A stretch of 60,393 nt of DNA, the filler included, from Dugesia japonica (Eukaryota): NCBI GenBank assembly GCA_001938525.1. It is 5 parts of 5 records of this genome, joined end to end, with 100 filler letters (N's around TTAATTAATTAA, not from the genome) between each part and the next. Parts side by side here need not be neighbours in the genome. Positions count along the whole stretch, not along the records: positions 33,401 to 42,295 come from MQRL01571313.1; 4 more parts are not named here. One strand, 5' to 3'. Every line of letters begins with the position of its first letter. Positions within the stretch are counted from its first letter, which is position 1. Shown here piece by piece: positions 11,531 through 59,080 of this stretch. The notes under the pieces are model-generated. The model searched no databases and was not told the DNA's origin. It worked only from the letters and a program-made list of their open reading frames with translations. The translations under genes were made by a program, and so were the position numbers.

Positions 11531-11539
11531 TTAACAAAT

Positions 11540-18563: not shown

Positions 18564-18663
18564 NNNNNNNNNNNNNNNNNNNNNNNNNNNNNNNNNNNNN
18601 NNNNNNNTTAATTAATTAANNNNNNNNNNNNNNNNNNNNNNNNNNNNNNNNNNNNNNNNNNNN
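18564..18663. other. Artificial scaffold join N44-TTAATTAATTAA-N44 (six-frame stop linker)
   Basis: An identical 100-nt construct also occurs at 33301-33400, 42296-42395 and 51249-51348. Confidence 0.92.
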
Positions 18664-18831: not shown

Positions 18832-18996
18832 TTAGGCTTCTTCCTCTATGTCTGCATTAAAGCTCAATGGGAAGTAAGTTTCGTCGGGATGTTCTACTAA
18901 TTCGGGAAATAACAAGTGGCCGATGAGTTGCCGGATGCGAGCACGTTTTTGCTGATTCAATATTACTCGTAGAACATTTATTAATTCACCTGGCAT
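18832..18996 (-). CDS. 54-aa unknown protein (MPGELINVLRVILNQQKRARIRQLIGHLLFPELVEHPDETYFPLSFNADIEEEA), small-ORF cassette member
   Basis: Intact ORF below the track cut-off, preceded by ttttcatttAG|aatATG. Clear protein-level homolog at 38359-38544 (LR.IL.Q.K..R..QLI.H.LF..LV.HPDET). Confidence 0.6.
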   Translation of the reverse strand: MPGELINVLRVILNQQKRARIRQLIGHLLFPELVEHPDETYFPLSFNADIEEEA

Positions 18997-19139
18997 ATTC
19001 TAAATGAAAAAAGGTTTAAAATTAATTTTTTGTCGTGGCATAGCTATGAATTTCTTGATTCAACTAAAATGGATTAATATAAGTAGAAATGTTGTCCTAG
19101 ATTTCCTTAGAGTTGATAATTACCTCTCTTAATAATATC

Positions 19140-20100
19140 AACTTGTGAATAGGATTATTACACCATTATCTAGGTATAGTCAAATAACGAGAATCTTGTT
19201 AGTAATAGTTAACGGTGAAAACAGGGTAGCGATAGTGATAATAAATATAATAACGGTAGCAATTTTGATAATAATAATTAGCATAATAGCCATACCAATA
19301 ATAGAAACCACATTAATCATAATTTTAATAGCAATAATACTCACTATTATAACAACTATAATAATAATAACAATTATAATAGTAGTAATAATTATACCAT
19401 TAGTAATAATAATAATAGGAACAATCATAATCTTAATACCAAATACATGGAGACTATTTTTAACAGTAATATCGATGATAACCAAGATTGTGCAATAATT
19501 TTAACGGTTGCTACCGCTTATAACAAAGTTCGATAACAAATCGGGTTCATTCATATATTGCCAATAATTACATATTGCAATCCTATAAAAACAGACATTG
19601 TAAGAAATCGCTTTAGTGGGGAGATCAATCATGAGGACGTGGAAAATTCTCAACGATAGTCCTTATTTGGAGGATATTAATTTTGAGGAAGAATTCTCAT
19701 AGCTGCACAAGGATTCAGAATATTACTAATGATCCTTATAAGAGAGATGTCAATAATCGTAACAATACTAATAATCATGATAGTAACGGCATTAATAATA
19801 ATGAGCCCTATAATGGTACGAATAGTGATTAATATGATAATAATATTAATAATCTGAAAATCCAGCAAAAAAAATTACTATTAGTTATAAGAATGATAAT
19901 CGTAACTCGTAACTTCTAGTAAACTCATGATAACAAGCTGACAATGAGAATAATTTCCTTGATGTTATTAATCATCAGTTCCTGAGGAGGGTTTTATTTA
20001 AAACACACATAATATTAGCCATTAATACTAATCGTAATAAAGAGTTCTAATGTAATTTTATAGATGATTTTGTTAGCATTTATTACCATAATCAGAACGT
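19140..20100 (-). repeat. Degenerate (ATT/AAT)-derived low-complexity region upstream of the cassette ORF
   Basis: Cryptic trinucleotide repeat with Ile-rich ORFs on both strands. Equivalent position and polarity at 37900-38250. Confidence 0.6.
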
Positions 20101-22802: not shown

Positions 22803-23129
22803 NNNNNNNNNNNNNNNNNNNNNNNNNNNNNNNNNNNNNNNNNNNNNNNNNNNNNNNNNNNNNNNNNNNNNNNNNNNNNNNNNNNNNNNNNNNNNNNNNN
22901 NNNNNNNNNNNNNNNNNNNNNNNNNNNNNNNNNNNNNNNNNNNNNNNNNNNNNNNNNNNNNNNNNNGTAAATATAGTTTTTACTTAAAAAATTAATGAAT
23001 ACTTTAAAATAGTTTATATATTTAAATAATATCAAAATTTAAAAATACGCCATATTATAACAAATGTATTTTAATAATTATACAATAATTATTTGTAATA
23101 ATTTTTTAATGAATAATGATAACAGTATC

Positions 23130-25203
23130 ATCAGGAAGTGTAATTCTCAATGAAATACGCCATTAATCTGCGTTTCGAAAAAGAAAACATAGAATATACG
23201 ATTATACTTAGACTTTAGACAGCTCAATGCAATAACAGAAAGACAAGCTTTTCCTATGTCAAATGCGAACGAAATGGAAAGATTCTCAAGAGAAAACGGC
23301 CTTTTCGACCAAACAATGGCAATTTTGTTTCAATAGAATGCATTTTAGAATTGCGGCAGCACCAGTTACGTTCCAAGAAATGATGAATAAAGTAATCGGG
23401 AAAATAAAAGAAGCGATGATTTATGTAGACAATATTCTCATATTTATCGAAAAAAAGGAACGACATTATGAAATAATCAATAAGGTATTGACAGAAATTA
23501 AGAATGCTGGTCTAAAACTTAATCCAGAGAAATGCCAATTCATGCGAAAGATGATCATATTTTTGTTACATGTTATCAGAAAAAAGGTGTCAAAACAGAG
23601 ACAACTAAAAAAGAAGCAATTAAGAACTTTGGTAAACCAAAATGCGTTAACAAGATGAGAAACCTTTTGGAAATTTGTAATTACTATAGCAAGTTTATTA
23701 AAGATTTTTCAAAAAAATCTAGATTGCTGGAACAACTGTGTAATGAGCCAAATAACAAGAAAACGGAATAGGCAAATGAATTGGAAGAATATTTTAATGG
23801 AATAAAACAAGCACTAATGATGTCTCTAATATTATGTTTTCCAGATATAAATAGTAGATTTATTATGGAAACGTATGGGAGTTTTCAAACGCAGTACTAT
23901 CTTAAATAGAAAACAATGGACAAAAAAGAGTAATTGCGTATGGATCACACGCAATGACGATTCATGAGAAAGAATATTGTACTACGTGGAAAGAATTACT
24001 CACAGTTTACTACTTTTGTATTTTTTTCAAAAAATATTTGTATGGGAAGGGATTTATCCTCAGAACAGACCCTAAAGCCATCACTTTAATGCTAAATACC
24101 AAGAAACCGATTGTATCAAAGTTTCAAACTTGAATTAATAATTCGAGCTGTTTAGATAAAAAAAATTGGAATATAGAAAAGGATCGCTTCATACAAATGC
24201 GGATATGTTGTCAAGGAGTAAATACGATTAATGTGCACAATGTAAAATGTCAGATGAAGATTCCAAGAGTAGAAAATTCAAAACAAAGATATTAAATATA
24301 GTAGATATTCAAGAGAAACATGAAAATTGTGGGAAAAATGATGAAGGAACATGGATGCCAGATGATAAAGCAGAAGATGTTATATGCTGAAGCAGAAAAA
24401 GTTGCAGCGTATATGAAGCATAAATATAACGCAAAACATTTGTGAAGCAAAATACAAGAAGTTGTCCGAATCTGTATAACAAGCTAGAAAGCTAAAGTGT
24501 TAACATAAACACGAAGGAAGAAACGAAAAAGACACAGCCAACCGAAATGTTTGAGTTGTTATTTATAGATGTGTGTGGATCACTGCAGGAGACAAGTTTT
24601 CGAAAAAGAATTGTTCTCGGTATAATATATCAATGCAGTAAGTATTTAGCCTTGATTGTAATTAAAAAACAAGCGGAAGATACCACAAGGAAGGCAATAA
24701 TGGAGAAGTGGATATTAAAGTTCGGGTGTCCGAGAGAAATTAAAGTTGATTGTAGAAGAGTATTTAAGTCTAATACAATTAAAGATTTTGCATGCAATTA
24801 CTCTCAGGTTTTCGATTCCATATCATCACAAATGGACAAATCAAGAGACATTTTAGATCTATGCAAGACATTGCCGGAGATAGAATTTACCTTGAATGCT
24901 ACAAAACAGAAAACCATTAGGAAAAACCCTGCCGAAATTGTATTTGGAGAGAGAATCAGCAGAGAAAAATGGTACGAAACAAATACTCTAAGAAAGCACA
25001 AAGAACAAGATAAAGAGATATTGACCAAAAGAAAATTCAAGGTTGGTGATGAGGTCTTAGTGAAAGTTGAAACAAGATCATTATGATGTAACCTATAAGA
25101 TCAAAAGAAAGGTTCACGACAGACGTTACATCCTTGAAGATACAAACGGAAAAAACATCGAAAGAAATATAGAGAATATCAAAGAATTTCTTAAAAAGAG
25201 GGA
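23130..25203 (+). mobile_element. Ty3/gypsy pol pseudogene (RT, RNase H, integrase) with polypurine tract
   Basis: KTAFST..QFCFNRMHF..APVTFQ..YVDNILI (YxDD-like), RNase H VIAYGSHAM..EKxYC..KELL, integrase FELLFIDVCG..KFGCPREI..D. PPT AAAAAGAGGGA before the 3' LTR. Confidence 0.92.
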
Positions 25204-34246: not shown

Positions 34247-35362
34247 ATGAATTTATTAAATTGTTATAATAAACAAATCTTAGAATGTGTTTATTTGAAA
34301 AATTTGTAAATCAGCTATTTACTTTTATTAATGAAATGTATATTTATTTTTATTCGAAAGTGATACTTAATAACTTAATTTTAAATTTCAATTAGAGATG
34401 AGTATGATTTCATTTGTCTTAATGTACGTGACTGTCCTCAAATATTTAAAGAAAATAATGCCTTAGCCATTTGTAGTTGTATAAAGCAAAAGTTTTATAA
34501 ATATTGTTTTGAAAATGCAATACAAAGCAAAGAAGACAGTATTTGTTTATTAGATTAAATCTTTAAATCTGATTTGATTAGAGTTTATAATTGGTGCTCT
34601 TTTAGTTTCACCTGAAACAGCTACATTATGGAATTTGAGAAAACAAAAAGTTTTAGAGAATTCTAATTCAATTAAAAATGAATTTCATTTAATAAATCTA
34701 ATTTTAAATTATTCTCCAAGATATACAGAACCTTGGAAACAAAGGCAAATCATAATTAATTTTGAGAAAAACATTTAATACTTGTAGAATCTGGATATAT
34801 TCAATTATTAAGCATATTAGTATGGATTGTATAAAGGATGATTTCAGTTTATCTTTGAAATTGGCTACAAAATATTCTCATAATTACTTTTTGTGGCAAT
34901 ATTTAAGAAACTTANNNNNNNNNNNNNNNNNNNNNNNNNNNNNNNNNNNNNNNNNNNNNNNNNNNNNNNNNNNNNNNNNNNNNNNNNNNNNNNNNNNNNN
35001 NNNNNNNNNNNNNNNNNNNNNNNNNNNNNNNNNNNNAAATAATTATTTAGAATTTGTTACTGAAAGATTTATTAAAATTACATCAGAATTGGTTGGATAG
35101 AAACTGTTGTGATCTCAGCGCTTGGAAATTCAGAATTTATTTATTCGTTCTGATTTATTCATCTTCATCATCTGATGGAGATTTGACAAACGATTTACTC
35201 ATAGAAGAAGAATTGAAATGGACGAAAAATATTCATGATTTTTATGGAACTCGATCAATTGAAATTTACATGTTAAAATATTTTATAATTAATCAATATT
35301 TTTTATTTGTTTATTTATTTAGGGATGAACTAAATCAACTAATTTGTTCAAAAACGAAATAA
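34247..35362 (+). CDS. PTAR1: Protein prenyltransferase alpha subunit repeat-containing protein 1-like; exons 34247-34305, 34396-34538, 34582-34744, 34788-(gap), 35051-35271, 35323-35362
   Basis: Spliced translation: LDEYDFICL..PQIFKENNALAI..ALLVSPETATLWNLRK..NEFHLINLILNYSPRYTEPWKQRIWI..LATKYSHNYFLWQYLR..WLDRNCCDLSAWKFR..IEEELKWTKNIHDFY. This follows the PTAR1 pattern (LLNPDFTTAWNVRK, PKSPETWxHRxW, YPSNYxAW, SDHS). The last intron is uncertain (51 nt, in frame). Confidence 0.8.
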
Positions 35363-35635: not shown

Positions 35636-35778
35636 TGGTTATTACCCACCTACAGATAATATATTTACGAACTAATTGAAATTTGAATTTTATAATTTCT
35701 TAATTACATGCCTCAGTCTAATTTAATTCCAATCTCAATTAGTCGTTTATTACGAAACTTTATATCAAAATTAATTAG

Positions 35779-35811
<33 letters not shown>

Positions 35812-35815
<4 letters not shown>

Positions 35816-36800
35816 GTGAAACACCCGGTTTTAGAAGGAAATTATGACCAGGGGTCCAAATTGGAAGTAATAAAATAAAGCAAGGGAGCCGGAAAATTGA
35901 TTAGGATTAATTATCAATTGTTTAAATTATGATAATTATAATAATGGAAAATCTGAAGAGAAGACGAAATGAAGAAAGAAATTGCCAGATGAATAGATTA
36001 CTAGTTTAATTAATTCCGGAAAATTAAGAAAAATTAATTTATTAATCAAAAAACAGGAAAATTATCATTAAAAATAATAGTTATTTAGCAGGAAAAAATT
36101 AATTAATTTTAGTCAAAAAAGAAGTTAAATTAGGTGGGAATCAGTTTTTGTAGGATATCTTCGCTCTAGAAGGTCACAAGAGACCCTAGCAAGAAAATCT
36201 GAAGAGGAAATGTTATCGGGCAATAGAATTTTCCAACAAGAATAACCTACCAGCAACATAAGGCCCACTAAAAAGGTTTGAAGAATGGACCAATAAGAGG
36301 CCAGAAAAGAAACGTAAAACAAAGAAATATAAATAACAAGGTGCTCCAAAAATAGGCACCAATAATGTGACTAAAAATGATCAAAAATTTTAGAATTTTG
36401 GAGTTGGCACCAATAGGAAACAAGAACCGAAAAATAAAAATAGTCAGCCAACAGGAAAGTAGTCGGGTTGTATTGAAAAAGCTATAAAAGCTTCAGAAAA
36501 TTTATTCAAAAAATCTACTTTTTTCATAAAATCCAAGTATTGGGCTATCCGGAGTATCCACGTATTAATTTCAAGGAAAATTTATCGAATTATTTGGAGA
36601 ATAATAAAGAAATCAGAAAAAGGAGTACATCATTCATTTCGGTGTGAAACCACATTTATTAGAAGAAACAAAAGACTGTTGCAGAAAGCTTAAAATCATT
36701 TTACAAAGTAAATTTTATGTTGTTATTACGTAATTGTCAATAATGCAGTAATCCTAAATATATGTTATCTTTAAAATATATGTTATCTTTAAATATATGT
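35812..36800 (+). repeat. LTR-like/promoter-like repeat next to (TA)n
   Basis: Begins after (TA)n; has several CCAAT boxes (~36290, 36359, 36410) and TATAAAA (~36483). No coding motifs. Boundaries uncertain. Confidence 0.35.
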
Positions 36801-38358
36801 TATCATGAATTCATATTTAAACATGAAAAAACGAAAATCATAAATGAATTTTTTTAAAGTAATAGAATTATCAATTTTGTCAGAATGGTCATTTAAATCA
36901 TGATACTGGTAGTGTACTTATAATCCTGGTTCCTGCGAAATAAAATACCTTTGAACGCTGTGTGTTCACCGATAGGAAAATCTGCCGCACAGAGTTGATA
37001 AACCAGAATTTATATCCAAATTTTTCTAGCAGTAATAGCTTAAATATTGAACTACGGCTGTAATTATAAGTTACTACCAAATGATGAGCCAACTGGTGTT
37101 ATTGATTCAATTATCTGATAATAGATACGACCCATTTGTTTAAGACATTTTAAACCAGAAACGTGGAAAATATCATCGTTAAACGTTAATCAAACAGTTT
37201 TGTGAATCACATTATACAAGAGAACTATCACGAAATTTCCACAACTGATGAAGACGTAATTCTAGATCACTGAGTAAATTTGCCGCATTTGACATTTGGT
37301 GAGTTAATAACAGATTACTGCTGTGAATTAGCTAATTTTCTACAGCAGACATACCGTAATAACTTTAGGATTTATCAACAGACCCACTATCAGTATGTTG
37401 TCAATAATAACCTCGATATTTCATGATGAGTCTACACAACTGTTTTGCACATAACTAACTCCGTCTGCCCCAATTCCTGTGTATTTCATCGATCTTCACT
37501 TTTAATTTAGATGACTAATTTTATGGGTTTTGCCGATAAATGATAATTCTGAGATTCGGTGAACATAATTTGCCAAATACCGGGATTACTATTGAATCTA
37601 GGGACACGAAGTTTTGGGCATTAAATTTTAGTATGAGAGACATCCTATTTAGATCAGAACATTTGTAAAACTTAAAAACTCAATCATTGGAATCTCTAAG
37701 ATTCAGTTGGAATTTAAGAAAATATAGTTCCGGGTCGTTCTGTGCTGAGTATCGATATCCACGTGAATTTTTTGTTGATTATTTCATCGGATTTGCAGAG
37801 TTAACATTTTTGTGATCATACATAAATCTAGATTTTAGGTGTTCTTGTATTAGTCACCTGCTACGATGGTGCTACCTTTTATTAATTTAGTTGTATCAAG
37901 TTAGATACATTGAGTCTAACCATAACCATTATTAATCATTATCTCTCCTTGTATATTTAACCTTAACATTATCGTTATTATTATTCTTATCATTATTATT
38001 ATTATTATTATTAGACTATCCCTATTATCACTACTAGTAATGCTATCATTATTATTATTATTAGTTTTATTATTATTGTTCTTGTTATTACATCCAGTAT
38101 TACCATTATTATTACTATGATCATAGTCATTATTATCACCATTATCAAAATAAATATTCTCACCATTAATCCTACTGTTATATCATTGTTTCAACCACCA
38201 ATAATTTTGGGGGTTACATTTAGTGCAAGAATATCGTTTACAAGATTAATAGAAAGAAGAGATAGAAAGTTTTTTTGTTACGGGGTTCGTAATTACGGCA
38301 CCGTATGTAATTGCTAGCATAAGTTGGGTTAACATTTGTTATATTTCTCATTTAGGTT

Positions 38359-38544
38359 ATGCCTGCCTAGTTAAAAACCACCCTGCGGTTAATTTTAAAG
38401 CAGCGCAAAGCCGTACGTCGCAAACAATTAATCGATCATATATTATTTTCCGCACTAGTTAAACACCCTGACGAAACTGACTTACAGTGTTTCGTCGAGA
38501 TGTTCCCATCAAGCTGCCACGTAGATATCGATAAGGAGTTGTAA
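38359..38544 (+). pseudogene. Homolog of the 54-aa cassette ORF (one early in-frame stop)
   Basis: ctcatttAG|gttATG CCT GCC TAG..; MPA*LKTTLRLILKQRKAVRRKQLIDHILFSALVKHPDETD...DIDKEL*; AATAAA at ~38609. Confidence 0.65.
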
Positions 38545-38676
38545 TGGATTTGAGTTCAAAATCACTCTGTATTATAACTCCTTTTCCTCATATAATGTTA
38601 ATTTGTTAAATAAAAACTTTGAACTTGTTTTATTTCATAATTTCATATTTTAAATGTTGGGGTAATTTTTCTTTGA

Positions 38677-38946
38677 ATGAACCATAAATGGGAAGTAATC
38701 CATAACTGGGTTACTGGCCGGATGCTGTTTAAGAAATATACAAATCCTTTTAATCGAGATGCGGTCGTTCTGATAGAACGAGCCAACTTGCCAGCTAGCG
38801 TCGCATACGAGGAGCGACACATGGACTCAACGGCTTGTCAAGCATATTATAACTGGACTGGCCCTGATCACAGTCGCGTCACCTTTTCTGTAAGAATGGT
38901 ATCCACAGACTATGTAAACGGGAGGTCGGTCATGCAACGAGAGTGA
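38677..38946 (+). CDS. 89-aa unknown protein within the small-ORF cassette
   Basis: GC-richer open frame between two cassette genes; AATAAA at ~39132. No homolog elsewhere in the window. Confidence 0.4.
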   Translation: MNHKWEVIHNWVTGRMLFKKYTNPFNRDAVVLIERANLPASVAYEERHMDSTACQAYYNWTGPDHSRVTFSVRMVSTDYVNGRSVMQRE

Positions 38947-39307
38947 AGAGAGAACACCCCTCCTTCACCCGAGCCTGTCCTCACCCTTATCGGTATAGGT
39001 GGATTAATCAGTGACACACTCTGAAGTGTTCGAAACACAGAAAGTGAGGGAAGTGAGGAAAATATCGAGCCCCCCACGGAGAGTGTAACTCATTTATGAA
39101 TAATGTCTTATATGATTTTGTGTTGAGTACTAATAAAATGTTTTTGTATTACATGAAAAATTTCTAACTCCTTTTTGGTTTCCTTTGTGATAGCTGATTT
39201 ATGTTCGACATAAGTTGATTACTCATGATAAACTCTGTCTAACGTTATTAATGACTGATTGATAAATTAACTTTCCTGTTTAATGTATTCTTCACTCAAT
39301 CGTTCAG

Positions 39308-39591
39308 TGGCCCCGACAAAGAAAGTAAGTGAAATCAGTAATGATACCGAAATGTCATGGGAGCTCTATCGTCTTGCTAAACGTCACTAGGAGGCTGACA
39401 CTGCTACAGCAGAAAGTAAGGTCAAGCGTTATAAAAATAAATGTATTGAATTTCGTAAGGAAGCCGAACCCCCACACGCACAGGAACTGCTTTAGAAAAA
39501 TAAGCTGGTCAACGATATAATGGATTTGAGGAAAGCTATGCCACTTGAGCCGTTAATGATAGATAAGAGTACACAAACATCACGGCCATGA
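39308..39591 (+). pseudogene. Helical/coiled-coil cassette protein ending in DKSTQTSRP (two in-frame stops)
   Basis: cgttcAG|TG GCC CCG..; (M)APTKKV...KRYKNKCIEFRKEAE...NKLVNDIMDLRKAMPLEPLMIDKSTQTSRP*. Homolog at 58363-58582. Confidence 0.65.
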
Positions 39592-39752
39592 TCTCCTACG
39601 TTTCTCTTTTGTTAGATTGTAAATAAAATTCTTCTTGAGTTTGAACTGATTTGTTTTCCATTCGTTTACGTTTACCGTATAAATATTTTTAGTTAATTAA
39701 ATTTTAATAGTGATCTGACTATTTTCTATTCTAATTGTTACTATTTGTTTAG

Positions 39753-40088
39753 TGCCCCGAATTCAGTTGCCCACCAGCTTACGTAGATGCCATCGCCTCA
39801 TACAAAAACTTCTTTTAGAAAGGCACATTAAGCGGCAAAACGAGAGAGCATTGTTACGACATCTGACCCAGAGAAATCGCCTTATTAAAAAACTAAATGT
39901 TATAGCTAAAAAACAGGGCGAACTAGCAGATCACACGAAGCAGGTACTCGTACACAAAATAGAATTCCTACAACAATATATATCTGATCTGGCAAAACCG
40001 TCTAGAACAAGAAACATGGATTTGCTGGAATAGCGAAGATGATGAAGCCGCTTTTGTTTTCATGTCTGGAGAGCCTACCCAGTGGTTA
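39753..40088 (+). CDS. Basic coiled-coil cassette protein (MPRIQLPTSLRRCHRL...), 3' end frameshifted relative to the 58715 copy
   Basis: ORF 39752..40033 is strongly similar to 58715..59080. Both start at ctaat..tttgtttAG|TG CC and share the GAGCCTACCCAGTGG (EPTQW) end. Confidence 0.65.
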
Positions 40089-40809
40089 GACCCGGGTGCT
40101 CTATAATTTATGTGACTAATTAAAATAAATTTTATTAATAGTATATTGTTAATTTATTTGGTAAATGAAAATAAGGGGAAAATAACGAACCCGAAATAAA
40201 CGTACACGAGTGAGCACATCAAGTAAGTCATGGAAGTCAACCGCTCTGTACCGATAACCTAATTAGGGATATTAGGTAAATTTTTAGGTAAAATCAACTA
40301 CTGAATTTTGTAATAAATTTATGTAATAAACGACTATTCATCACTGTATTTTTATCAAATAATTGAAATTGGAATTAAATTAGCTTCAGAAAATTAATTT
40401 CGTATTTCGAATAATTTAAAAAGCTATATTATTATGGTTATTTTTATTTATTTTAATAACATGTATTATTATCTTGTGAAAACTTGCTAATGTGATAAGA
40501 AATACTTAAACGTTTTACAAGAAATTTCATAAATTTTTCAAATAAATATCATAAATTCATATTTTGTTACTCCTCAGACTTTTAATTTGAAACAAAATTC
40601 AACCAATTAACACTGAGAAATAATTAAAATAATTTACATGAATGATTGAAATTTAAATTTAATATTATTATTTTTTTAACTTTCCAATTATATGGCAAAA
40701 TATACATTTTAAATATGTTAAATAAGTGAAATGAAAGTACTTTAACTAATTGAAATTCAATTAATTCAAAGATAAACCGGTAATAAATATTAAATAAATC
40801 AATTAAAGT

Positions 40810-43880: not shown

Positions 43881-44981
43881 CTATTTGCTTCGTTTTCTTG
43901 CTGTCCATACCAAGCATGTTGTGTCCCATGAGCAAGTAGCTATCGCTACTCCGTCTGGGCTAATTTTTACACCACTAACCCTGCCATCATGGGCTGATAA
44001 CAAACCTATTCTTTCTTCCCTCAAAAGATCCCACACATGACAAATAAAATCATCATATCCTGCAATAAGAATTCTACCTGATTTTGAAAGTGCTAGACTT
44101 GTGCTGCCACTTTTTATGTAATCATCAGTATAAATAGCAATACATTGATCAGATCGAATGTCCCAAAGCCTACAAGCTTTATCATCTGAAGCACTAACAA
44201 ATCCATATGATGCTTCAGGGAAAAATGAAATTCCATTTACATCTTGTTCATGGCCAACAAACACTTGAACATATCTGTTTGGTATTCGGACATCCCACAA
44301 ACGGCATGTTTTATCAGCGGAAGCAGTAACAAACATATTTGTATCTTTCTTATTAATATCTAAACAAGTAACATCATTTTCATGCCCCAAATACGATGAT
44401 AACATTTTATTAGTTTCTAAATTCCATAAACCACAACTTTTATCTCCTGAAGCACTGATTATAGAATCATCATTCTGAAATCGACAAGATGAAATGTAGC
44501 CATCATGGCCTACCAATTCACAACATGGCGCTTCTGGCCCTGCAACAGTTTGTAAATCGAAAATGCTGATAACATTATCTAGTCCACCACTNNNNNNNNN
44601 NNNNNNNNNNNNNNNNNNNNNNNNNNNNNNNNNNNNNNNNNNNNNNNNNNNNNNNNNNNNNNNNNNNNNNNNNNNNNNNNNNNNNNNNNNNNNNNNNNNN
44701 NNNNNNTGAGAAGCAGTTACGAGTAGTTGACTATCTGAAGCCCAATCCAAGCTTGTTACTTTGGACAAATGTGATCTTAATTGTTTGCATACTTTGAATT
44801 TAAGTCTCCCAAGTTCTTTAACGTGTTCTGTCATTTGGAAAAAATCTGTATCTTGAACTTCTTGTCTAACTGAATCAAGACGTTCTTTTATAATTTCGAT
44901 TTCATCAATCAATTTGAGCTCTTCAGGACACATGTCCTCTAAATTGTCATCAACACCAAGATTAACTATAGTTTTATCCAT
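43881..44981 (-). CDS. Heterotrimeric G-protein beta subunit, divergent, apparently intronless
   Basis: N-terminal coiled coil plus WD40 repeats with G-beta motifs (LRSHLSKV..W..DS.LLVTAS; GGLDN..SI; GHDGYISSCRF; SGD..CxLW; GHEQDVN; SDD..CRLWDIRSD; SKSGR.L.AGYDDF; HDGRVS; CSWD). The N gap length (~39 codons) matches the missing protein segment. Confidence 0.95.
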   Translation of the reverse strand: MDKTIVNLGVDDNLEDMCPEELKLIDEIEIIKERLDSVRQEVQDTDFFQMTEHVKELGRLKFKVCKQLRSHLSKVTSLDWASDSQLLVTASXXXXXXXXXXXXXXXXXXXXXXXXXXXXXXXXXXXXXXXSGGLDNVISIFDLQTVAGPEAPCCELVGHDGYISSCRFQNDDSIISASGDKSCGLWNLETNKMLSSYLGHENDVTCLDINKKDTNMFVTASADKTCRLWDVRIPNRYVQVFVGHEQDVNGISFFPEASYGFVSASDDKACRLWDIRSDQCIAIYTDDYIKSGSTSLALSKSGRILIAGYDDFICHVWDLLREERIGLLSAHDGRVSGVKISPDGVAIATCSWDTTCLVWTARKRSK

Positions 44982-46040
44982 AAGATAGATAACAGTTAGT
45001 TTTTAACTTTGTTTTAAATCAGCTTGTGATAACTACCATCATACATCTTGACATCTTTGGATACTATACACAATATATTTGATTGGGCGTGTGTAAAAGA
45101 TAATAGAACTAATAATAATTGGAACTAGATATGCATTATCACAGATATCGACTAATCGATACTAAGCCTTTGTGTAGCTTGATTCAGCATACAAACTCAA
45201 TATAGTCCAATTAATACACACATTCCTATAGACTAAACACACAGTACCATGCATACTCACCTTAGAGTGAATATTTATGCATCCAGATTAGCAAACTTAA
45301 CTGAACAGATAAAATTGATAATAATTATTATTAATGAAATAGCAAACTTTGATTTGTCTAAACAAACCAATGAAAATCCAAATTGGATAGAAAATTATTT
45401 GAAATAGCCAAAATTTGTGAAAATATTAGCTTATCAATTTTCAATAAGGAATTTCTAATTTATTTGCCATAAAATAATAAACCATTTCAAAGAAATATTT
45501 TTAATGTAGAATTTAAGAAAATATATTAAAATTAAGACTGTCAATATAAAATCGTAAAAATAATTCATAACTTCAATGTTCAAGTCACTTTGATATTTAA
45601 GAATTCAATGTAAATAACAGTGAATTAATTTCTTTTCAAAAATCAAATGCGGATATAACGATTAAAATATTAATGTAAATAAATCTTCATGATTTTCCAG
45701 AACTTAACTGATCGGAATCATAAATTGTTAAAGTGCTTTTTACTCTACTGTTCTTCATTAATTTAAATCTTCATAACATCTATTTTGTGTATTTTTAATG
45801 ATGAATCAAAATGAACCTTATCTCATATTATCTCAAAAAAATTTATCTCAAAGATAATTTTTTTCCTATTTTTCATAGTTTCACTTGAGATGAATAGTGG
45901 AAGGAGATATTGGTGAAAGAAGTAAATGGTTCAGTGGTATAGAAGGCTAAACGTTGTCAATTGAAAGACTATGAATAAGAGGTTAAAGTAAAAGATAACA
46001 ATCAATAACAAAGAACAACTGTAGACAGAAGAAATAACTA

Positions 46041-48879: not shown

Positions 48880-51155
48880 TGGATTAGGAACGATAAATGT
48901 AATGAAATGAGTAAAGTGAGAGAAAAGGTTTACAAATTCCCGAAAAGGGAAAGTTTCAATGAGGCAGAAGTTAACAAAGCAGAAGGGATAGGAACAATTG
49001 AGGAAAAATAATGTAGAAAGTTTGTATAAGATGCAAGGGAGACCTATCATTTATGTGATGATCAAAGGTGAACAGTTTGATTATTTGTTAGATACGGGAT
49101 CACGAAAAAATGTAATGAGCATGAAAAGATTTAGTAGACTCGGAGAAATAATGTTAGAGAAAAGTGAGGAAAGATTGCATTGCGCGAATAACAGCTCATT
49201 GGAGACTATTAGAAAGATACTTGTGAAAGTTGTCGTTTCAGAGGTGTGCAAGGAAGTAATATTTATAAAAATAGAAAAACTAATACCGCATCGAATTAGT
49301 GGAGTGGAATTTGAACATACTTTTGGGTATCATCTGCAAAAAAGGGCAGGGTAAACATCAATAGTCAACGAGAAATTTTTTTTGCAACATCGAGGCAAAA
49401 TTTGGAATACAGATACAGATGGACAGACAATTGAGACTTGCGATGGAGATTCTAGAAGTTAACAAAGATCATAGATGGACTCCGATTATTCAGAATAATA
49501 AGGATGTATTTATGGTGGGAAAATGGGACATTGGATGCACAAACTTAACAAAGCATCGAATAATCACTAAAAAAGGTCCAATCAACATAAAACTTTATCG
49601 TCAACCAATGAATCTAGAAGAGAAGATTGAAGAGGCCATCAAGAATCTGTATGATAACGGTATCATCGGGAAGTGTAACTCTCAATGGAATACACTATTA
49701 ATCTGCGTTTGGAAAAAGGAAAAAAAGGATATACAATTATGCTTAAAGTTTATACAGAAAGACAAACTTTTCCTATGCCAAATGTGGGCGAAAAGCTAGA
49801 TGCTTTGGAAAGTACCCAGTATTTTAGCTTAAAAGACTTGAGAAATGCATATGAAATAGTCAATAAAGTATTAAAAGAAATTAAGAATGCCAGTCTAAAG
49901 ATTAATCCGGAGANTTTTCAATTCTTTCGAAACGAGATCAAATGTTTGTTACAGTTATCACTAAAGAATATTTCAAAACAGATCCAACTGAAATAGAAGC
50001 AATTAAGAACTTCGGTAAAACCAAAATTCGTTAAGAAAATGAGAAGCTTTCTGGAAATTTGCATAATCTATCACAAATTCATTAAAGATTATTCAAAAAA
50101 GCTAGATTGCTGGAACAACTGTGTAGTTGACCGAGTAACAAGAAGATTAAATGGTTGAACGAGTTAGAAGAAGTTTTTAATGAAACGAAAGAAGCACTAA
50201 TGATATTTCCAATATTATTTTTCCAGATATCAATAAAGAATTTATATTAGACACAGATGCGAGTTTCGACACGACTGNTGCAGTACTGTTTCAAAGAAAC
50301 AATAATGGACAAGAAAGAGTAATTGCATATGGATCACACGCAATGACAAGTCATGAGAAAGGATATTGTACTACGTGGAAAGAATTACTCGCAATTTACT
50401 ACTTTTGTATTCATTTCAAACATTACATATATGGGAAGAGATTTATTTTTAAAACAGATCATAAAGCTATCACTTTTATGCTAAATATAACGCGAAACAT
50501 TTGTGGAGCAAAGTACAAGAGGTTGTCCGAAGCTGGATAACGTGCGAGAAAGCTAAAGTGTTGACAACAAAAACAAAGGAAGAAACAGAAATTACACAGC
50601 CAGTTGACATTTTGTAGTTGTTATTTATAGATGTGTGTGGACTATTGCAGGAGACAAGAGGTCAAAAAATATACGTTCTCCGTATAATAAATCAATACAG
50701 TAAGTATGTAGCCTTGATAGCAATGGTAAGACAATATGAAGATACCATACGAAAGACAATAATGAAGAAATGGATATTAAATTTCGGGTGTCCGAGAGAA
50801 ATTTGAGTTGATTCTAGAAAAGCATTTAAGTCTAAACCAATGAAATATTTTGCACCTGAACATGGAATTACCCTCAGGCTTTTGAGTCCATATCATCATA
50901 ACACAAATAGACAAATCGAGACACAGTTTATCGAGATATGATAAATGCGACAATTACAGAAAGGAAAACCTCAGATTGGGCTGATGTATTGCCAGAGATA
51001 GAATTTACCCTGAATGCTACAAAACAGAACACCACCGAGAAAAGCCCTACTGAAATCGTATTTGGGAAGAGAATAAGCAGAGAAAAATTCTACGAAACAG
51101 ATACTTAAAAAGTGCACAAATAGCGAGATAAAGTGATACTAACCAAAAGTCAATT
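48880..51155 (+). mobile_element. Ty3/gypsy pol pseudogene (protease, deleted RT, RNase H, integrase)
   Basis: YLLDTGS protease, WDIGCTNL.KHRI.T..PI, FILDTDAS RNase H, EKGYCTT.KELLAI, integrase LFIDVCG..FGCPREI, PYHHNTN.QIE. Same family as 23130-25203. Confidence 0.92.
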
Positions 51156-51348: not shown

Positions 51349-51463
51349 AATTACATCATAGATAAACGATCAAATAACCGATAATCGCACTAATTACGTA
51401 AAGGGGGTGGGGGAGGGTTCTACTGAATGTGTGCGTGGTTACGTGCGCTACTATCTATCTACT
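51349..51463 (+). mobile_element. Polinton-like right terminus inserted into a pPolB gene
   Basis: G-rich tract then ATGTGTGCGTGGTTACGTGCGCTACTATCTATCTACT; the pPolB coding sequence starts abruptly right after it. Confidence 0.65.
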
Positions 51464-53631
51464 AATAGAAAAAAGAAAATAAATACATTAACATCAGAAC
51501 AAGAAATATCGTTCAGATCAGCAAAAATCTGTAATATATGTAAAAATGAATTAAAAGATCCTGTTCGTGATCATGATCACTTTACAGGAAATTTTATCGG
51601 AGCTGCATGTAATAATNNNNNNNNNNNNNNNNNNNNNNNNNNNNNNNNNNNNNNNNNNNNNNNNNNNNNNNNNNNNNNNNNNNNNNATCATATTTTGAAG
51701 TATGGTATCAATAAATTTCCAAGTTGGAACATATCATGTATACCAACCACGTGTGAAAAAATCTTACGTTTAATCGTTCATCTGAGTAAAACAACAATCA
51801 GATTTATAGACTCCTATCAGTTTATAAATTCGTCCTTAGATGCAGCAGTGAAGTCATTAAAAGAGATCTTTGGCGACACAAGAATTTAAAGATGAAAAGT
51901 TAACAAAGTCAAAAGGTATTTTCCCGTATAATTTTGCAACAAGCTTAGATGGTCTCAAAGAAGCAACAAGTATGCCTCCAAAATGGCCAGAAATTAGTCA
52001 GAAAGAGTATGGTAAAGCTATAGAAATGTGGCAAATAACTGGTTGTAAAAATCTATTAGACTAAATATGCTAGTTTATTTAAAGTTAGATGTTTACTTGT
52101 TAGCCGACGTCTTTCGGCAGTTTCGAGCAAAATCAACAGCGCATAATAGTTTGGAACCATTAACATTCTTTGGTATACCTGGAATGAGTTGGGCATCTGC
52201 CTTGATGTCGTTAAATGAGCCAATAGAACTGTTAGCAGATAATGATATGACAACCTTTTTTGAAGGTGGAATAAGAGGCGGTTTAACTTTTGTTAATAAG
52301 CATTATGTAGAGACTGATGAAAACACTGAGCTCCTATACATAGACATTAACAATCTTTATAGATAGGCGTTAAGTCAGAAGCTTCCTTATAAAAATTTTG
52401 AATGGGTCTATTCTGGATTTGATAAAATTTTAGAAGAATGTGAGGAATCTGACCTGGACTCATTGTCATATGGATATTCATTAGACGTTGACATGATTAT
52501 TCCCGAGAAAATTCAAGAGCGATTAAATGATTTCCCAGTTGCGGCAGAGCATCAATGCGCTCCCGGAAGAAACGTTAAGAAATTAATGTTAACTCATTAT
52601 CCAAAGAAGAACTACATTATTCATCAGAGGTTGTTACAAATGTATATCCAGTTAGGTGTTGATGTGACAAAGGTACACAGAGGTGTTAAATTTGTACAGG
52701 CATCGATTTTCGAGAATCATATTAATGTCAATACAGATTTGAGATCGAAATGCGAAACAGAGTTGGAGAAAAATTTCTACAAGTTATTAAACAACAGTCT
52801 ATATGGTAAAACTGTAGAGAATTTAAAAAAGATGATAAATCTACGTTTATGCAATACGAAAAAAAACTTGTTACATATACATCAAAAGCTGGATTTTAAA
52901 GATCAATAAAAATTGATAAGGACTTAATAGCTGTTTTGTTGAATAAAGAAGTGGTTTGCTTAGATCGAACAAGTTATATTGGACAAACGGTTCTTGATTT
53001 AAGTAAACTAAGAATGTATCAACTTCAATATAATCAGTTGCAGAANNNNNNNNNNNNNNNNNNNNNNNNNNNNNNNNNNNNNNNNNNNGACACTGACAGC
53101 TTTTTCCTTGAAGTCAAAAATATTAAGTTAGAAAAACTAACTGGATTGATGGTTGAAGATCAGTTGTTAGATACTTCAAATTATGAAAAAAGTTATCCTC
53201 TTTTCAATGATAATTTAAATTCAGTTATTGGAAAATTTAAAGATGAAAGTAAATTCCACAAATATATAGAATGGATTTGCTTGAGACCGAAATGTTATAG
53301 TCTTCTAAGTGAACAAGTTTCGATGAAGGCTAAAGGTATTACTTTAAAAAACACTGGTCTCACTCATCAATCGTATATTGAATGTTATGAAAAAGATAAA
53401 TCAGTTTTAGTAGATCAATTTTTGATGGCATCAAAAGAACATCAATTATATAGTATAAAATGTAGGAAAATGGCTTTATCAAACAAAGATGATAAAAGAG
53501 TATGGACTGACAAAAATTTAAGTTATCCATACGGATATTACAAATTATCCAAAAATCTTTCTGAAATTGATGAAGGCAATAGTTACAGTATAAACACGAA
53601 AGAAAATTCAGGAAGACAGATATTTTTTTAA
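51464..53631 (+). pseudogene. Polinton/Maverick (adintovirus-like) protein-primed family B DNA polymerase with EndoVII/HNH-like domain; 5'-truncated, frameshifted
   Basis: CNIC..VRDHDHFTG.FIGAACN, RFIDSYQF..SL, KGIFPY, YLKLDVYLLADVF, GIRGG, LLYIDINNLY, YKLLNNSLYGK, DTDS, IGKFKDE, LRPKCYS, KAKG, DDKR. Confidence 0.95.
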
Positions 53632-54699
53632 ATACATCTTGTTTTTCAAAGTTGAATTATTTTCTTATTTAGTTTTTATGTATAGTTATCTATATTTTTA
53701 ACTTTTTATTTAATTCGTGAATATTAAAAATATTCTCAAGAACAGCNNNNNNNNNNNNNNNNNNNNNNNNNNNNNNNNNNNNNNNNNNNNNNNNNNTAAG
53801 TATTTGTTTCTCTAATTTAATTTTAAATGTTTAATAAATTAATTTAAAATAAAATCAATGCACCCTTATTTCACCCAACTCAATGCATTAGAAAAAACCA
53901 AACTAAATGCAAGTGTTCCAGTGTTTACGTATCTACATACTATTATCTTAACATAAAAATGTATAGTAGGTAAATACTTAAACACTGGAACAGTGCATTT
54001 AGTTGGTATTTTTTTAAAACAACCAAAAAAGGTTGAAGAAGAAAAAATTTGAACCACAAAAAATAAAACCACAAAACATTTGAAGAACTAAAAATTAAAG
54101 AACAAAACCCCCCCTCGACCAGACAGTGTTCCAGTGAGAAGTACTAAGATTGTACTAAGACTTAAAAAGTCGGATTTTTATGGATATGTGAATAATATTA
54201 TTTTATTTGTTTAAGGAAATTTTAGAAAATTCATAACACAGATGCAATTCAAGTACAATTCAAGTACAAATAATATCAATTTTAATGAAATCTCAAATCC
54301 AATCAATGGTTAAGTCCAGCCATTATTCTCACAATAATTGTAATTATTAAATTTAAATATTTAATTTTCAAATAATGGACTATACGAATTTAACACGCCG
54401 CGATAAACAAAGCCATTTTGCAGGCTAGAAAATAATCCCCAGGTTTAACCATGTCCTGATTCTGGCAGCGTAAAGCTGTCGAAGTAAACAAAAGTGAAGA
54501 AATAAGAAGGCGCAAATAAATGGGGGTTACGTTTGGGAACCATAATTGAAATTTTCCACATCACACCATCTAGATCTACTCACATTGAATCTCTTCAATC
54601 TCAAGAGTGCCAGCCGGTCCATTGTAGAAACTCCAATTCCTACTCGACNNNNNNNNNNNNNNNNNNNNNNNNNNNNNNNNNNNNNNNNNNNNNNNNNNN

Positions 54700-57370
54700 N
54701 NNNNNNNNNNNNCCTGTTTTAGCACTGGTTCATTTTCAACACACTTTAATCCCAAACACCCTACTGAGATAGTCTCAAAGAAAACTTTATTATCTGAATG
54801 TCCTTTTTCAATGTGTGTATTTATTTATGTTCAAGTCTTTAACTAATTTTAAAGTAATGTATTTGTCGGAAGCGGTTTTCACATCCAGTAAGAAAATATA
54901 CTTCTGCTTAACATTTATAAGCTGCAAGTCAACGCGATCAGTCCTATCAACAAGGTCACAGGTTTGATCGACTATAACTTTGAAGTTGTATTAGCTCTAA
55001 CAAACCTAGCAAGCCACTTAAGCACATCATAGTGACAAAAACGTGTGCTTCAGTTCTTAAATTGTAAGAACACTTCCTGCAGGATTTAAAGGGCATACCG
55101 TAATTGCTATCTATAGAAATAGTGTTTGTTCTTGTCTTATGAATAAACCGCATATTCTCAGGTTTTATAAAGCCATCATACAAAGGTTAAGTAGAAAGTA
55201 TGGATACACCAATCGCAGGAGTAAGCGCATCAGTTTTAACCAAACACACTTCCTAATGTGTTTCCAATTTAATAGACCATGAAGCAGTTTAGTCGTCGCT
55301 CTCCGGTCTTCAAATGAAATTAAATAATTTCCTTCACCGATGATATTTATCACCTGCAAGCAAACTTCCAGTTCATTCCTATTAACTTTTACTTGCAGGT
55401 CAAGCTCACGATCTCGATATGCGATTGCATCGTAAATCTTGGACCATCAGCTTTTGAGATTTAATTTGGTGGTATAAAAGGATAGCCAGTTCAGCGCTTC
55501 GTCAATTGAACACAAATTTAAATTTTTCATGTGCTTATTAGCCGCATGAATCAGGTCATGATTAAAACATCTCGTACTATCTCATCTGGGCATAAAAGCA
55601 TTTTGAAAGCTTGTACAAGAGATTTTACAGAATACTTATTTCTAGTAGAGATTAGACCGACCGCCACAATTTTCAGGAGTTATAAAGATAGTCGCAGGGT
55701 GTCAGCACTGGAACATAAAATCTGTTTTATGGATGTACGAATTTGTTTATCAATACTTCAGATTCAGAAAATTGCGACATTTTCAGAGTGGCAACAACAG
55801 TCAAATTCTCTCAACGGAATGTTGAAATTTTGAAATGCGAACGTAAACCTTGAGCGAATAAAAGTTCGGTATGCTTGTATCTTTTGCCAGTGATAAAGAA
55901 CCAAATGTTTTATCTTTTGAAGGTCTCGGACAGATTTTTCAAGAATTTCTGTTGGAGTTTGGAAATTATCACGGTTTAAGTTCACCACTAGGTATCTACA
56001 GAAATCTTAATGGAGGATTTTGAGAGCTGGTTCTCACTTGATTGCTATTTGAGCAGGTTCGCACTTCCTAAGTCAAAATCAAGAAAAGACCAGTCATTAG
56101 ATGTTACCGTGACAACCACTATATCGTGTAAACTAACCTTGGAAGTGGCTACAAGTGCTAAACCATCAGCATATGCCAAAGAAGATATAGAGTGTTCAGT
56201 ACATCTAACACCAGCACCATAGGTTTTGGAAATATCATTAATCATTGGATTGATATCAATGTTAAACAGTAACATAGACAGTGGACAGCTCTATCAAACT
56301 CCTCTTTTATTAGCAATATGATGGGAGGAAATAACATTGCAGATGTAATAGCTGAAACAGTCATAGTTCAGCGCTCTGATTAATCCGGTAGCCTTTACAG
56401 TTAACCACACTTGCGTGAGCAGACCAAGAATATGATCACGGGTGATACTTCCAAAGATGTCAGCTATATCCAAGAAAGCGATATGCAAGTTTAACTTTGT
56501 ATATCCGCTCTGTTCACTAAGCAAGAAACGCAGCAAAAGTTTGTGCTCAGAACACCCTTAAGATTCTCCAGCACTCTTCTGAAGTTTATGTAGTCAACCG
56601 AAATTTTAAGCTCAGCTTGAGAGTTGCAATCCACAACAAGCCATGAATAGCTTGTAGATGCAGTCAAGCAAAGCTATTAGCCTCCAAAATGAAACAAAAT
56701 GATAAGAACCAGCTTTGGATATACCAGCTTTGGTATCATCAGAGTTGAGTATATCCGCCAGATATTTCGAGTCATTCCAGATGCAAAAATTGTCTTAAAA
56801 ACTTTATGTATCAGAACACTGACAGACCATTGAGAGTGTGTTTGAAGCTAGTAGGTTCTGCACTATAAACTCGAAATTATCATCCCCAGATTTCAAAGAC
56901 AGGCAAATATCCCAGTTTGTAACGGGTCCGACAAAAGACTTGGACTGAAAGTAGCTTTTTAAATCAAGATGAAACGGAAAGAAATAGGCCAAAACCTCAT
57001 TAGTATTAAGCTTAAAGACCGCTTTTTGAGAGTAGTAGAACTTATTCCTGATGTTGAGATAAACCTCGACACTCTTAGTTGTCTTTCCCTCATCGATTCT
57101 AAAATTCAAATCTTATGGCTTGATGTAGCCATCAAGCAGGTCTCTAGAAGCCTTAACATCATTACCATCGACATCCCTCACCAAAATTTTAGACTTATTT
57201 TCACGATCCTTTGGATCGATAATGATTTTAACTGAATCTTTGTTGTTTTTTGAGGTTTTATTAGTAATATTAATAAAATTAATTTTATTTTTTGATTTAA
57301 AATTTAAAACTTTAGACTTTAACAAATTAAGATCAACTTTAATTACATTCACAAAATGAGGAATCAAGAA
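54700..57370 (-). mobile_element. NeSL/R5-like RLE non-LTR retrotransposon, degenerate (RT, CCHC, REL)
   Basis: FWRLIALLDCIYKLF, AFLDIADIFGSI, RGV...LSMLLFNIDI, SLAYADGLAL (YADD), WQKIQAYRTFI, RFIHKTRTN..CRKC...EAHV, DRVDLQL..FLLDVKT. ORFs 56804-57400 may be its N-terminal part (less certain). Confidence 0.85.
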
Positions 57371-57371
57371 G

Positions 57372-57432
57372 AGTAGATAGATAGTGACACACAAGCACAA
57401 TTTTATAAATCACCCCCCTCCCCCTATGGGTT
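57372..57432 (+). mobile_element. Polinton-like left terminus
   Basis: AGTAGATAGATAGTGACACACAAGCAC...CCCCCCTCCCCT, the inverse of the 51400-51463 end (14 terminal nt exactly complementary, plus a C-rich tract about 40 nt in). Confidence 0.6.
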
Positions 57433-58039
57433 CGGAAACACATTACTTTTTATTTTTTTTTATTTACTAAATTTATTAATATCATGTTACAAAATAAATT
57501 CCTGGTTTTAACAGCATGTCTTCAGGATTCTCAAAATTTCATAGTTACTCCAAAAAAAGTGTTACAAATTCCAGTTATTAATTATTAATTTAACAAAATA
57601 ATTACACCGGATTGTTTACTTCGTGTCTTATTAGCTTTTATCAGATTAACATATATATTACAATTTGGAGTAACTCAAATATGGCGAATCTAGACTAGAC
57701 CATTTAATCGGCATATTTTATTTNATTTTCAATGTGAAGAGAATTATAAAATAAAATAAATAGAAGCATTATGATTTTTTTTTAATTAATTTAGGACAAA
57801 TTAAATTTGTAAAATAAAAGAAATTTGTTATCATTTTTATTTCTATTTTTTATCAGTGTGTTGCTCGATATGTATTGCGAACTAGCAACACTTCTTTAGT
57901 AAGGTGTGGTCTGACATTTTTCTGATAAAATGTAACTCTTATTATAAGGATTAACAATTTTTTCAATTTGTTATCTCTGCTTAAAAATGAAATTAATTCG
58001 TGTTCATTTTTATGCTACGATTTTTAACTTGGGTTAACT

Positions 58040-58362
58040 TAACAACAGTACATCAATCAGATTACTCAGACTTTAGGTAGAAATACAAAAGCAATGCTTC
58101 AACAACACGAATGAGAAATCTTGGATATATGCATATTAGACCAAGATTAAGCAGTAGTCGAATGTATGGGTCTTTCAAGATAAGCGAAAACCAACAAAAG
58201 TCATTCGTACTCGAAGCACTTGTTTTACGGTAAAACTGGATATACGGCAACCTTAACTTTGTGACTGGTAGAACGATTACGAGAGTCATTGGGAAACAAC
58301 AATTAAGAAAAAACAACGTGTGACGCTGGTTTATTCTACATCATGACAATGCGATCTCACAT
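58040..58362 (+). mobile_element. Mariner transposase fragment
   Basis: SWIYAY*TKIKQ*SNVWVFQDKRKPTKVIRTRST, FYGKTG, WFILHHDNAISH. Confidence 0.82.
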
Positions 58363-58582
58363 AAATGAAAACAAAAGGAAATGCCTAGCTTTTAAGAAGG
58401 AGGTTGAGGCCTCTAATACCCAAGAAAGAGTCTGGAAGGCGCAAGTAGAATCTTTTGCGGAGATCATCCGGTCCCTCCATGACCGTGAGAATAAACTGGT
58501 GACGGACATTTTACTGCTTCGGAAGGCAATGCCCCTTGAGCTTTTAATGGTCGATAATGGTACCCAGACAACACGACCTTGA
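58363..58582 (+). CDS. 3' part of the coiled-coil cassette protein ending DNGTQTTRP
   Basis: KRKCLAFKKEVEAS..QE..ENKLVTDILLLRKAMPLELLMVDNGTQTTRP*, homologous to 39308-39591. The 5' end is replaced by mariner sequence. Confidence 0.6.
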
Positions 58583-58715
58583 TGTCGGTTATTTTCAAAT
58601 ATCATAAATAAACGATTTTCTTCTCTTAATAAATTCTTTCTTCCTATTTGTCTACTTAATTAATAATTCGTTTAGTTTAAGAGAAATAAATTATCTAATT
58701 GTGCATCTTGTTTAG

Positions 58716-59080
58716 TGCCACGAATTATATTCCCCAACAGTTTAAGATGCTGCCATAGAATAATCCGGCTACTTCTACTAGAACGGCACCACAAACGTCA
58801 GACCGAGCGTGCCTTGCTAAAATACCTTTCTCAACGAAATAAGTTGATTAAGAAGTTAGATATCATCGTGAAAAAGCAGGGAGACCTAGCGGAACAAACA
58901 AAGCAACTCCTCCAAAATAAAATCGACTTTTTAAAAAAATACATAGCGGATCTATCCCGCCAGCTAGGCAACGCGTCGTGGTTACAATGGGACTATAAAG
59001 ATAATAATGTTGCGTTCAATCTTATACCCGAAGATAATACTGCGTTTAATTTTATTCCAGAAGAGCCTACCCAGTGGTAA
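58716..59080 (+). CDS. Basic coiled-coil cassette protein with acidic tail (MPRIIFPNSLRCCHR...EEPTQW), intact
   Basis: 121-aa ORF starting at ctaat..cttgtttAG|TG CCA; homolog at 39753. Confidence 0.65.

Follow-up and report, generated by a model that had tools for sequence, protein, structure and literature searches.

A stretch of 60,393 nucleotides from the genome of Dugesia japonica (assembly GCA_001938525.1; hereafter the window), joined from five parts, carries in the part derived from MQRL01571313.1 four short open reading frames (ORFs), here designated B, C, D and E. They start at 38359, 38677, 39308 and 39753, respectively, on the same strand, and an AATAAA polyadenylation (polyA) signal lies behind each. 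B to E are a real, selected multi-gene block of a high-copy mobile element, equipped with splice and polyA signals of the last-exon type. We favour the reading that the block is an accessory part of a Polinton-type element and that its ORFs are expressed by splicing from one shared leader, and give these two propositions jointly a probability of roughly 0.4. The focal copy, its two relatives in the window (copies 1 and 3) and the associated features are as follows, a slash marking the boundary behind an acceptor AG.

18832–19900, minus strand: copy 1, comprising the ATT tract and an open ORF B (54 amino acids, 18996–18832); ends 11 nucleotides past the stop codon, at the AGTAG end 18820
37632–37815, plus strand: ORF A, a doubtful member; AG/tATG at 37633, stop at codon 12
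37930–38200, strandless: degenerate (ATT)n tract, part of the element, preceding B in copy 1 too
38359–38544, plus strand: ORF B, 61 codons with a stop at codon 4; own ATG (AG/gttATG), acceptor at 38356
38470–38496, strandless: inverted repeat inside ORF B (8 bp, 11-nucleotide spacer), a candidate cis element
38609–38614, plus strand: AATAAA after B, 64 nucleotides past the B stop; U-rich DNA follows
38677–39099, plus strand: ORF C, 89 open codons, own ATG, no AG ahead; stops at 38944 and 39022
39132–39137, plus strand: AATAAA after C, about 33 nucleotides past 39099
39308–39591, plus strand: ORF D, opening with AG/TG; stops at 39388 and 39493; predicted coiled coil and a conserved C-terminus of 30 amino acids
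39562–39579, plus strand: DKSTQT, a predicted LC8/DYNLL-binding motif; the equivalent in copy 3 is VDNGTQT
39622–39627, plus strand: AATAAA after D, 30 nucleotides past the D stop; aligns with 58607 of copy 3
39731–39752, plus strand: E acceptor, composed of a CTAAT branch motif, a pyrimidine tract and AG; kept in copy 3 (58695–58715)
39753–40106, plus strand: ORF E, opening with AG/TG; predicted coiled coil; frame change after about 40003
40070–40103, plus strand: hairpin at the 3' end of E, near-identical in copy 3 (59063–59095), a candidate cis element
40124–40129, plus strand: AATAAA after E, 17 nucleotides past the E tail frame and 33 past the position of the copy 3 stop
40206–40286, plus strand: conserved non-coding tail; a 17-nucleotide block at 40232 equals that at 59227, and the copy breaks off near 40286
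57372–57470, plus strand: right-facing AGTAG-type end, which interrupts a long interspersed nuclear element (LINE) reading frame and has copy 3 inside it
58343–59290, plus strand: copy 3, comprising the C-terminal part of D, an open E lacking methionine, the hairpin and the tail; continues into a GC-rich stretch up to about 59400

A preliminary description of this DNA had reported acceptor-coupled starts for most ORFs of the array, and we confirmed in the sequence the acceptor sites at 37633, 38359, 39308, 39753 and 58716, as well as the absence of an AG before 38677. The acceptors of B, D and E rank within the top 1.4–5.1% of the 5073 AGs in the window. The CTAAT motif described upstream of the E acceptor lies at 39731 and is found again at 58695 in copy 3, and the AATAAA hexamers said to follow every ORF from 38359 onward are present at 38609, 39132, 39622 and 40124 (the last had been put at about 40123). 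Given a background frequency of 0.20 for an AATAAA within 65 nucleotides, or 0.34 in AT-rich DNA, a signal behind four of four ORFs has a chance probability of about 0.002–0.013 for an ORF set that was picked after the fact. The ORFs stand out as GC-rich islands (GC 0.40–0.46) from spacers of about 0.2. Pyrimidine-tract AG/TG sites number 30 in the window, three of which (39308, 39753 and 58716) combine an upstream AATAAA with a GC content of 0.40 or more and an open frame of 26 codons or more, by thresholds fixed post hoc. Between copies, the pattern of an acceptor before and a polyA signal after the ORF holds for B and E; for D it is seen in the focal copy.

The tandem set originally proposed thus stands for B to E, and its first member, ORF A, is weak. 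The GC content at third codon positions (GC3) of ORF A is 0.28, its acceptor ranks only in the top 14% of the window AGs, no homologue was detected, and its ATG is absent from the sole contig covering that site. Because of the host-like GC3, the early stop and the unshared ATG, we did not count this doubtful ORF as a block member. Beyond the block, extra AG/TG sites follow an AATAAA at 57857 and 59537 (plus strand), flanking copy 3, with AT-rich, stop-interrupted frames of unproven status; a GC-rich frame of 36 codons occupies 59290–59398 and precedes an AATAAA at 59441. These sites and this frame are possible further members of the array. Fold z-scores of the two candidate cis elements were modest (−1.9 for the B inverted repeat, not significant alone; −1.3 and −2.2 for the E hairpin), and Rfam gave no match at gathering score. 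On visual inspection the B inverted repeat has an incomplete hammerhead core, and its interpretation as such a ribozyme was abandoned.

Homologues of the ORFs were found at 18832–18996 (minus strand) and 58343–59080 (plus strand), in agreement with the earlier claim, with E-values from 3e-10 to 5e-34 (7e-4 for the N-terminal piece of D). In the 150 codons of B, D and E that were aligned between copies, the first, second and third codon positions differed 46, 25 and 85 times, respectively. The comparison of nonsynonymous with synonymous change for which the preliminary description had called gave a pN/pS of 0.27 (bootstrap 0.20–0.35; pN 0.21, pS 0.78), so that synonymous sites are near saturation, and the asserted protein-level conservation amid many synonymous changes was borne out; two shifted frames of E gave ratios above 1. 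The codon-position bias and the low pN/pS therefore indicate that the copies descend from lineages long under purifying selection. An alignment of 37490–38262 with 19902–19125 extends the likeness to copy 1 over the ATT tract, weakened by low complexity. Acceptor positions, claimed to be conserved, are so for B and E: the branch motif, pyrimidine tract and AG/TG of E are kept in both copies within a spacer that has otherwise drifted. The D acceptor was not seen in copy 3.

The focal copy itself is a dead pseudogene: B meets a stop at its codon 4, C has stops at 38944 and 39022 and D at 39388 and 39493, and the frame of E changes late. Reads and contigs were mapped to the focal 3.1-kb block only, and in run X3 2418 contigs fell on it, of which 173 were at least 99% and 1136 less than 90% identical, with 77 differing contigs at one site. 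At the focal stops, the greater part of the depth reads otherwise (34 of 42 at 38944, 153 of 160 at 39022 and 228 of 279 at 39388). These three stops are therefore private decay of the focal copy, and C probably runs to 39099 in its relatives, with about 140 codons. Summed contig depth, which is not a copy number, reached 9817 over the core of B (the deepest bin), 5620 at the E hairpin and 1200–2200 over the tail, as compared with about 12 for a piece that is exact and unique. The block is repeated in high copy, and its deepest stretches coincide with the B inverted repeat and the E hairpin. At 40282, 67 contigs continue into other sequence resembling, by eye, the window from 59280 onward, so the focal copy is truncated there. 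From 40290 on a different repeat begins, with an inverted partner near 35700–35790. An ACTACT at 40297, considered as a Polinton end, lies in this other repeat and was rejected.

How could such a block be expressed? From the preceding stop codon to its end (58676–59080), the open copy of E encodes no methionine. Together with the conserved CTAAT, pyrimidine tract and AG/TG, this means that E must either be joined to an upstream exon, in phase 1, or initiate at GUG; the idea that AG/TG starts demand an upstream exon is thus supported at E, with GUG initiation as the alternative. The own ATGs of B and C, and the start of C at the position where its homologue starts (see below), favour a non-coding leader over a shared coding exon. 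We infer a shared leader of this kind, and propose that one promoter would give a long pre-mRNA in which the leader is spliced onto the alternative last exons B to E. A leader ending in A would complete an AUG when joined to the acceptor of D or E, B and C would use their own ATG shortly downstream, and each choice of acceptor would be coupled to the next polyA site, yielding one short mRNA per gene. Whatever the element, shared-leader splicing is the probable explanation of this anatomy. The adenovirus-like arrangement of alternative acceptors with separate polyA sites, as first suggested, is conserved between two deeply diverged copies, and no splice junction has been observed.

At the protein level, a full HMMER search with C returned three matches, of which P0002 was accepted (94 amino acids, from a 512-bp ENA contig). 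It aligns to C from Met1 with 43% identity over 63 residues, which supports the start of C and places the family outside the window as well; the alignment from Met1 also argues that the ORFs are whole small proteins rather than polyprotein pieces. P0001 (KNL1 MELT repeats) and P0003 (bacterial PPC repeats) were rejected as relatives of C, their scores being summed over repeats. None of eight candidates of near length passed as a relative of E in the protein search, none of 4671 longer ones did in a weak search, and an alignment-based search returned no candidate for B. No family of Pfam or PHROGs scored above threshold for the ORFs, with only sub-threshold matches of coiled-coil type; C had no match among PDB sequences, a scan of viral contigs found no relatives of B, C or E, and collection scans of metagenomes and prokaryote genomes found nothing. 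The AlphaFold model of C (predicted local distance difference test score 49) had no match below an E-value of 0.35 in a fold search, and the models, being unusable, were not used. A WW-like look of the C N-terminus had no support in Pfam.

D and E show heptad periodicity in a simple test, and the C-termini of D, IDKSTQT in the focal copy and VDNGTQT in copy 3, fit the LC8/DYNLL-binding pattern, described as [D/S]-K-X-[T/V/I]-Q-[T/V] in the accessible parts of PMC3078936. By the same partial account, IDKSTQT matches the natural LC8 consensus and VDNGTQT resembles the phage-selected VSRGTQT. TQT occurs ten times in 120,782 six-frame residues. D shares with LC8/DYNLL-binding proteins a motif near a predicted coiled coil, the likeness being a sequence match alone. 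D is accordingly predicted, from its sequence, to be an LC8-dimerised coiled-coil protein, which as an LC8 binder may suggest roles in host interaction or transport.

The case for a Polinton-type carrier starts from the termini. Typical of Polinton ends are an initial AG and short tandem repeats. An AGTAG-type end is common to 18820 (minus strand), 51463 (minus strand) and 57372 (plus strand), with three matches against none in 100 shuffles, and looser relatives lie at 20824 (plus), 26695 (minus) and 53965 (plus), which brings the total to six in 60 kb. Two of them, 20824 and 26695, form an inward-facing pair bordered by a 6-bp duplication; the block does not lie between them. The 5.9-kb element that they delimit, filled with Tc1-type and gypsy relics, is probably a non-autonomous Polinton-type derivative. 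A pPolB relic occupies 51362–53631 (plus strand; feature 51349–53990) and is interrupted at 51463 by an AGTAG-type end, and a back-to-back pair of such ends, resembling a tandem or circle junction, lies at about 53900–54000, just past pPolB. Polintons are described as having terminal inverted repeats, target duplications of 5–8 bp (typically 6 bp) and variable extra ORFs, according to the portions consulted of PMC3014272, 10.1101/2023.08.22.554363 and PMC6431247; PMC8532177 and PMC11410931, likewise in part, provided general background. Copy 3 lies 970 nucleotides inward of the 57372 end, from which no multi-N gap separates it; no partner end was found in the window. This copy is either part of the element bounded by that end or a later insertion into it. 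The earlier statement that two of three copies lie near Polinton-like termini therefore needs qualification: the ends are real and copy 3 is inside one, but that next to copy 1 faces away. The end at 18820 points away from copy 1, which is thus its target and not its cargo. No AGTAG-type end was found for the focal copy. Introns and internal polyA sites would presumably be cost-free for an element replicating as DNA, and the proposed anatomy is in that sense compatible with a Polinton-type carrier.

Several observations weigh against the reading that we favour. The end at 18820 begins 11 nucleotides past the B stop of copy 1 and cuts the block, and the chance that one of three copies lies within 1 kb inside an AGTAG end is, by a rough estimate, 0.25. 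None of pPolB, integrase, ATPase, protease and capsid genes adjoins any of the copies, all fragments, in Pfam scans of 24 read-through frames; between the pPolB relic and copy 3 lie 4.7 kb that include two gaps and a LINE. The GC3 of the mini-genes (0.38–0.49) differs from that of the window pPolB (0.28). As for splicing, C carries a polyA signal but has no acceptor AG in the focal copy, this copy and copy 3 have different DNA ahead of D (that of copy 3 aligns to neither B nor C), and no upstream leader exon was found, the best donor (A/GTAAGT at 40223) lying downstream of E in the conserved tail and having no counterpart in copy 3. Three RNA runs yielded 18, 174 and 51 reads on the block, none at 95% identity or more and many on the ATT tract; no splice joint occurred among these 243 reads, a depth too thin to test splicing. 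Diverged relatives of the block appear to be transcribed at a low level. The proposal of a Polinton-like accessory block accordingly keeps the 6-bp duplication and the position of copy 3 on its side, and has the missing core gene and the unlike GC3 against it; we give a Polinton-type origin about an even chance. The fullest version, an adenovirus-style unit of a high-copy animal Polinton-type element that encodes orphan microproteins, completes start codons with the A of its leader, thereby making the translation of several genes depend on splicing, and hijacks LC8 through one product, is doubtful.

Four other explanations deserve consideration. The block could belong to a giant long terminal repeat (LTR) retroelement of the Burro kind, lying antisense to its genomic RNA or inside a long LTR and spliced from an LTR donor. 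The very high depth of the block would suit such an element, as Burro is described as numbering thousands of copies and as having both accessory ORFs and tandem repeats (PMC6431247, in part), and the Retand elements of plants as carrying, between pol and the 3' LTR, antisense ORFs along with tandem arrays (PMC11963269, in part). The GC3 of the block is nearer to that of the window retroelements (0.34–0.37) than to that of pPolB, and a donor downstream of E would be sensible if the unit were directly repeated. Nevertheless, no reverse transcriptase (RT), integrase, primer-binding site or clear LTR end is joined to any of the copies, fragmentary as they are, in self-alignment and Pfam scans; four sense polyA signals would hinder the genomic RNA; copy 3 lies inside an AGTAG end; and the likeness to Burro rests on descriptions, not on sequence. 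We regard this alternative as unlikely. It is improbable that the ORFs are separate transcription units, with individual 5' untranslated introns and 3' ends, or use GUG starts, and share no leader. Neither a leader nor a junction has been seen, C has no AG, and a GTG is in frame at all three AG/TG sites, as such units would have it; the 68–176 nucleotides from each AATAAA to the next start, however, offer scant room for promoter, exon and intron, and a branch motif conserved along with its AG would be unneeded for a GUG start.

A source in another integrated DNA virus, adomavirus-like or of an undescribed group, would accommodate the closest described splicing layout, that of adomavirus late genes (in the accessible text of 10.1101/341131), the location of the sole homologue, P0002, on a short ENA contig and the difference in composition from the local pPolB. 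Yet Pfam scans showed no helicase, capsid or other viral hallmark nearby, the viral contigs gave no relatives of B, C and E, and the high copy number would imply an element driven by an integrase, which makes this origin quite improbable. Spliced-leader trans-splicing of an operon, whether of an element or of a host gene family, would explain a polyA signal followed within 70–180 nucleotides by an acceptor, and flatworm operon candidates are defined by spacers of up to 300 bp in the excerpts of PMC12582326. The flatworm leader in that account ends in AUG, so that D and E would be read in the wrong frame and only B would fit, and dispersed, truncated and decayed copies among transposons are unlike host genes, whose GC3 in the window is 0.18–0.22; an operon is thus very improbable.

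The window as a whole is AT-rich animal DNA (GC about 0.15–0.39 per kb) from a draft assembly with gaps, and contains gypsy, Tc1-type and LINE relics, a G-protein beta gene and the pPolB relic. Contig joins are marked by artificial TTAATTAATTAA linkers in N gaps at window positions 18607, 33344, 42339 and 51292, and adjacency across these linkers should not be trusted. The divergent G-protein beta subunit (43881–45002, minus strand) has a 373-codon frame that spans a gap, the sequenced part showing no evident intron. A probable host gene at 34578–35362 (plus strand) has a weak match to prenyltransferase-alpha repeats (Pfam E-value 0.008, under the cut-off), which we take to be PTAR1-like. Just 5' of the focal block, beside a TA microsatellite, lies a probable solo LTR (35811–36650; TG...CA by eye), for which no link to the block is shown. 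A frame with few stops at 36950–37430 (plus strand), upstream of ORF A, is of low copy in run X3, has no family match and is possibly another decayed gene; ahead of B, a minus-strand ORF of N-rich or env-like character had no family match in Pfam scans. One gypsy pol region occurs in two copies 76–80% identical (23116–25037 and 49651–51155), with a more distant third piece at about 11500–12600. Decayed non-LTR retrotransposon pieces (54900–57371 and 18049–18339, both minus strand) show a weak RT match (E-value 0.003) and what we presume to be restriction-like endonuclease motifs.

Comparison with known systems brings out which features of the block are shared and which are not. Features that the window shares with Polintons/Mavericks (adintoviruses) are a relic of pPolB and AGTAG ends, one pair of them with a 6-bp duplication, whereas no core gene is linked to the block. 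In the literature searched, which left aside most subscription journals and Repbase, we encountered neither an acceptor-coupled mini-gene array or leader splicing in Polintons nor such a unit in flatworm retroelements. Adenoviruses use separate polyA sites for their gene groups. Adomavirus late genes have acceptors directly before the ATG and a leader of three exons, as far as the accessible text reports (bioRxiv 10.1101/341131). The late units of both virus groups resemble the block in acceptors set directly before successive ORFs, the leader of the block being proposed; their late ORFs encode virion proteins with their own ATG, as opposed to orphan proteins of 55–140 amino acids here, and, unlike them, two ORFs of the block appear to need the leader for an AUG, and the block is repeated in the genome in high copy. 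The env of insect endogenous retroviruses of the springer subclade is spliced from an AU dinucleotide, with the start codon assembled across the junction (PMC12992720, in part), the device that we propose here. That env has one acceptor and one LTR polyA site, in contrast to several acceptors and internal polyA signals, with no env likeness, in the block. Burro/GYPSM1 and Retand are alike in high copy number, accessory ORFs, tandem repeats and coiled-coil (Smc-like) products (PMC6431247 and PMC11963269, both in part) and unlike in that the block is not tied to gag-pol or an LTR, Burro being compared by description.

Gene expression in Polintons has been little described. If the reading that we favour is true, the joining of one leader to alternative last exons would connect transcription in Polintons with that in adenoviruses and adomaviruses. 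If, on the other hand, the carrier is a giant LTR element, its spliced accessory program would be of unusual complexity for a retrotransposon. ORF finders miss genes whose AUG is split by an intron. This would account for the lack of database relatives of B, D and E, and similar blocks may be overlooked in other repeat libraries.

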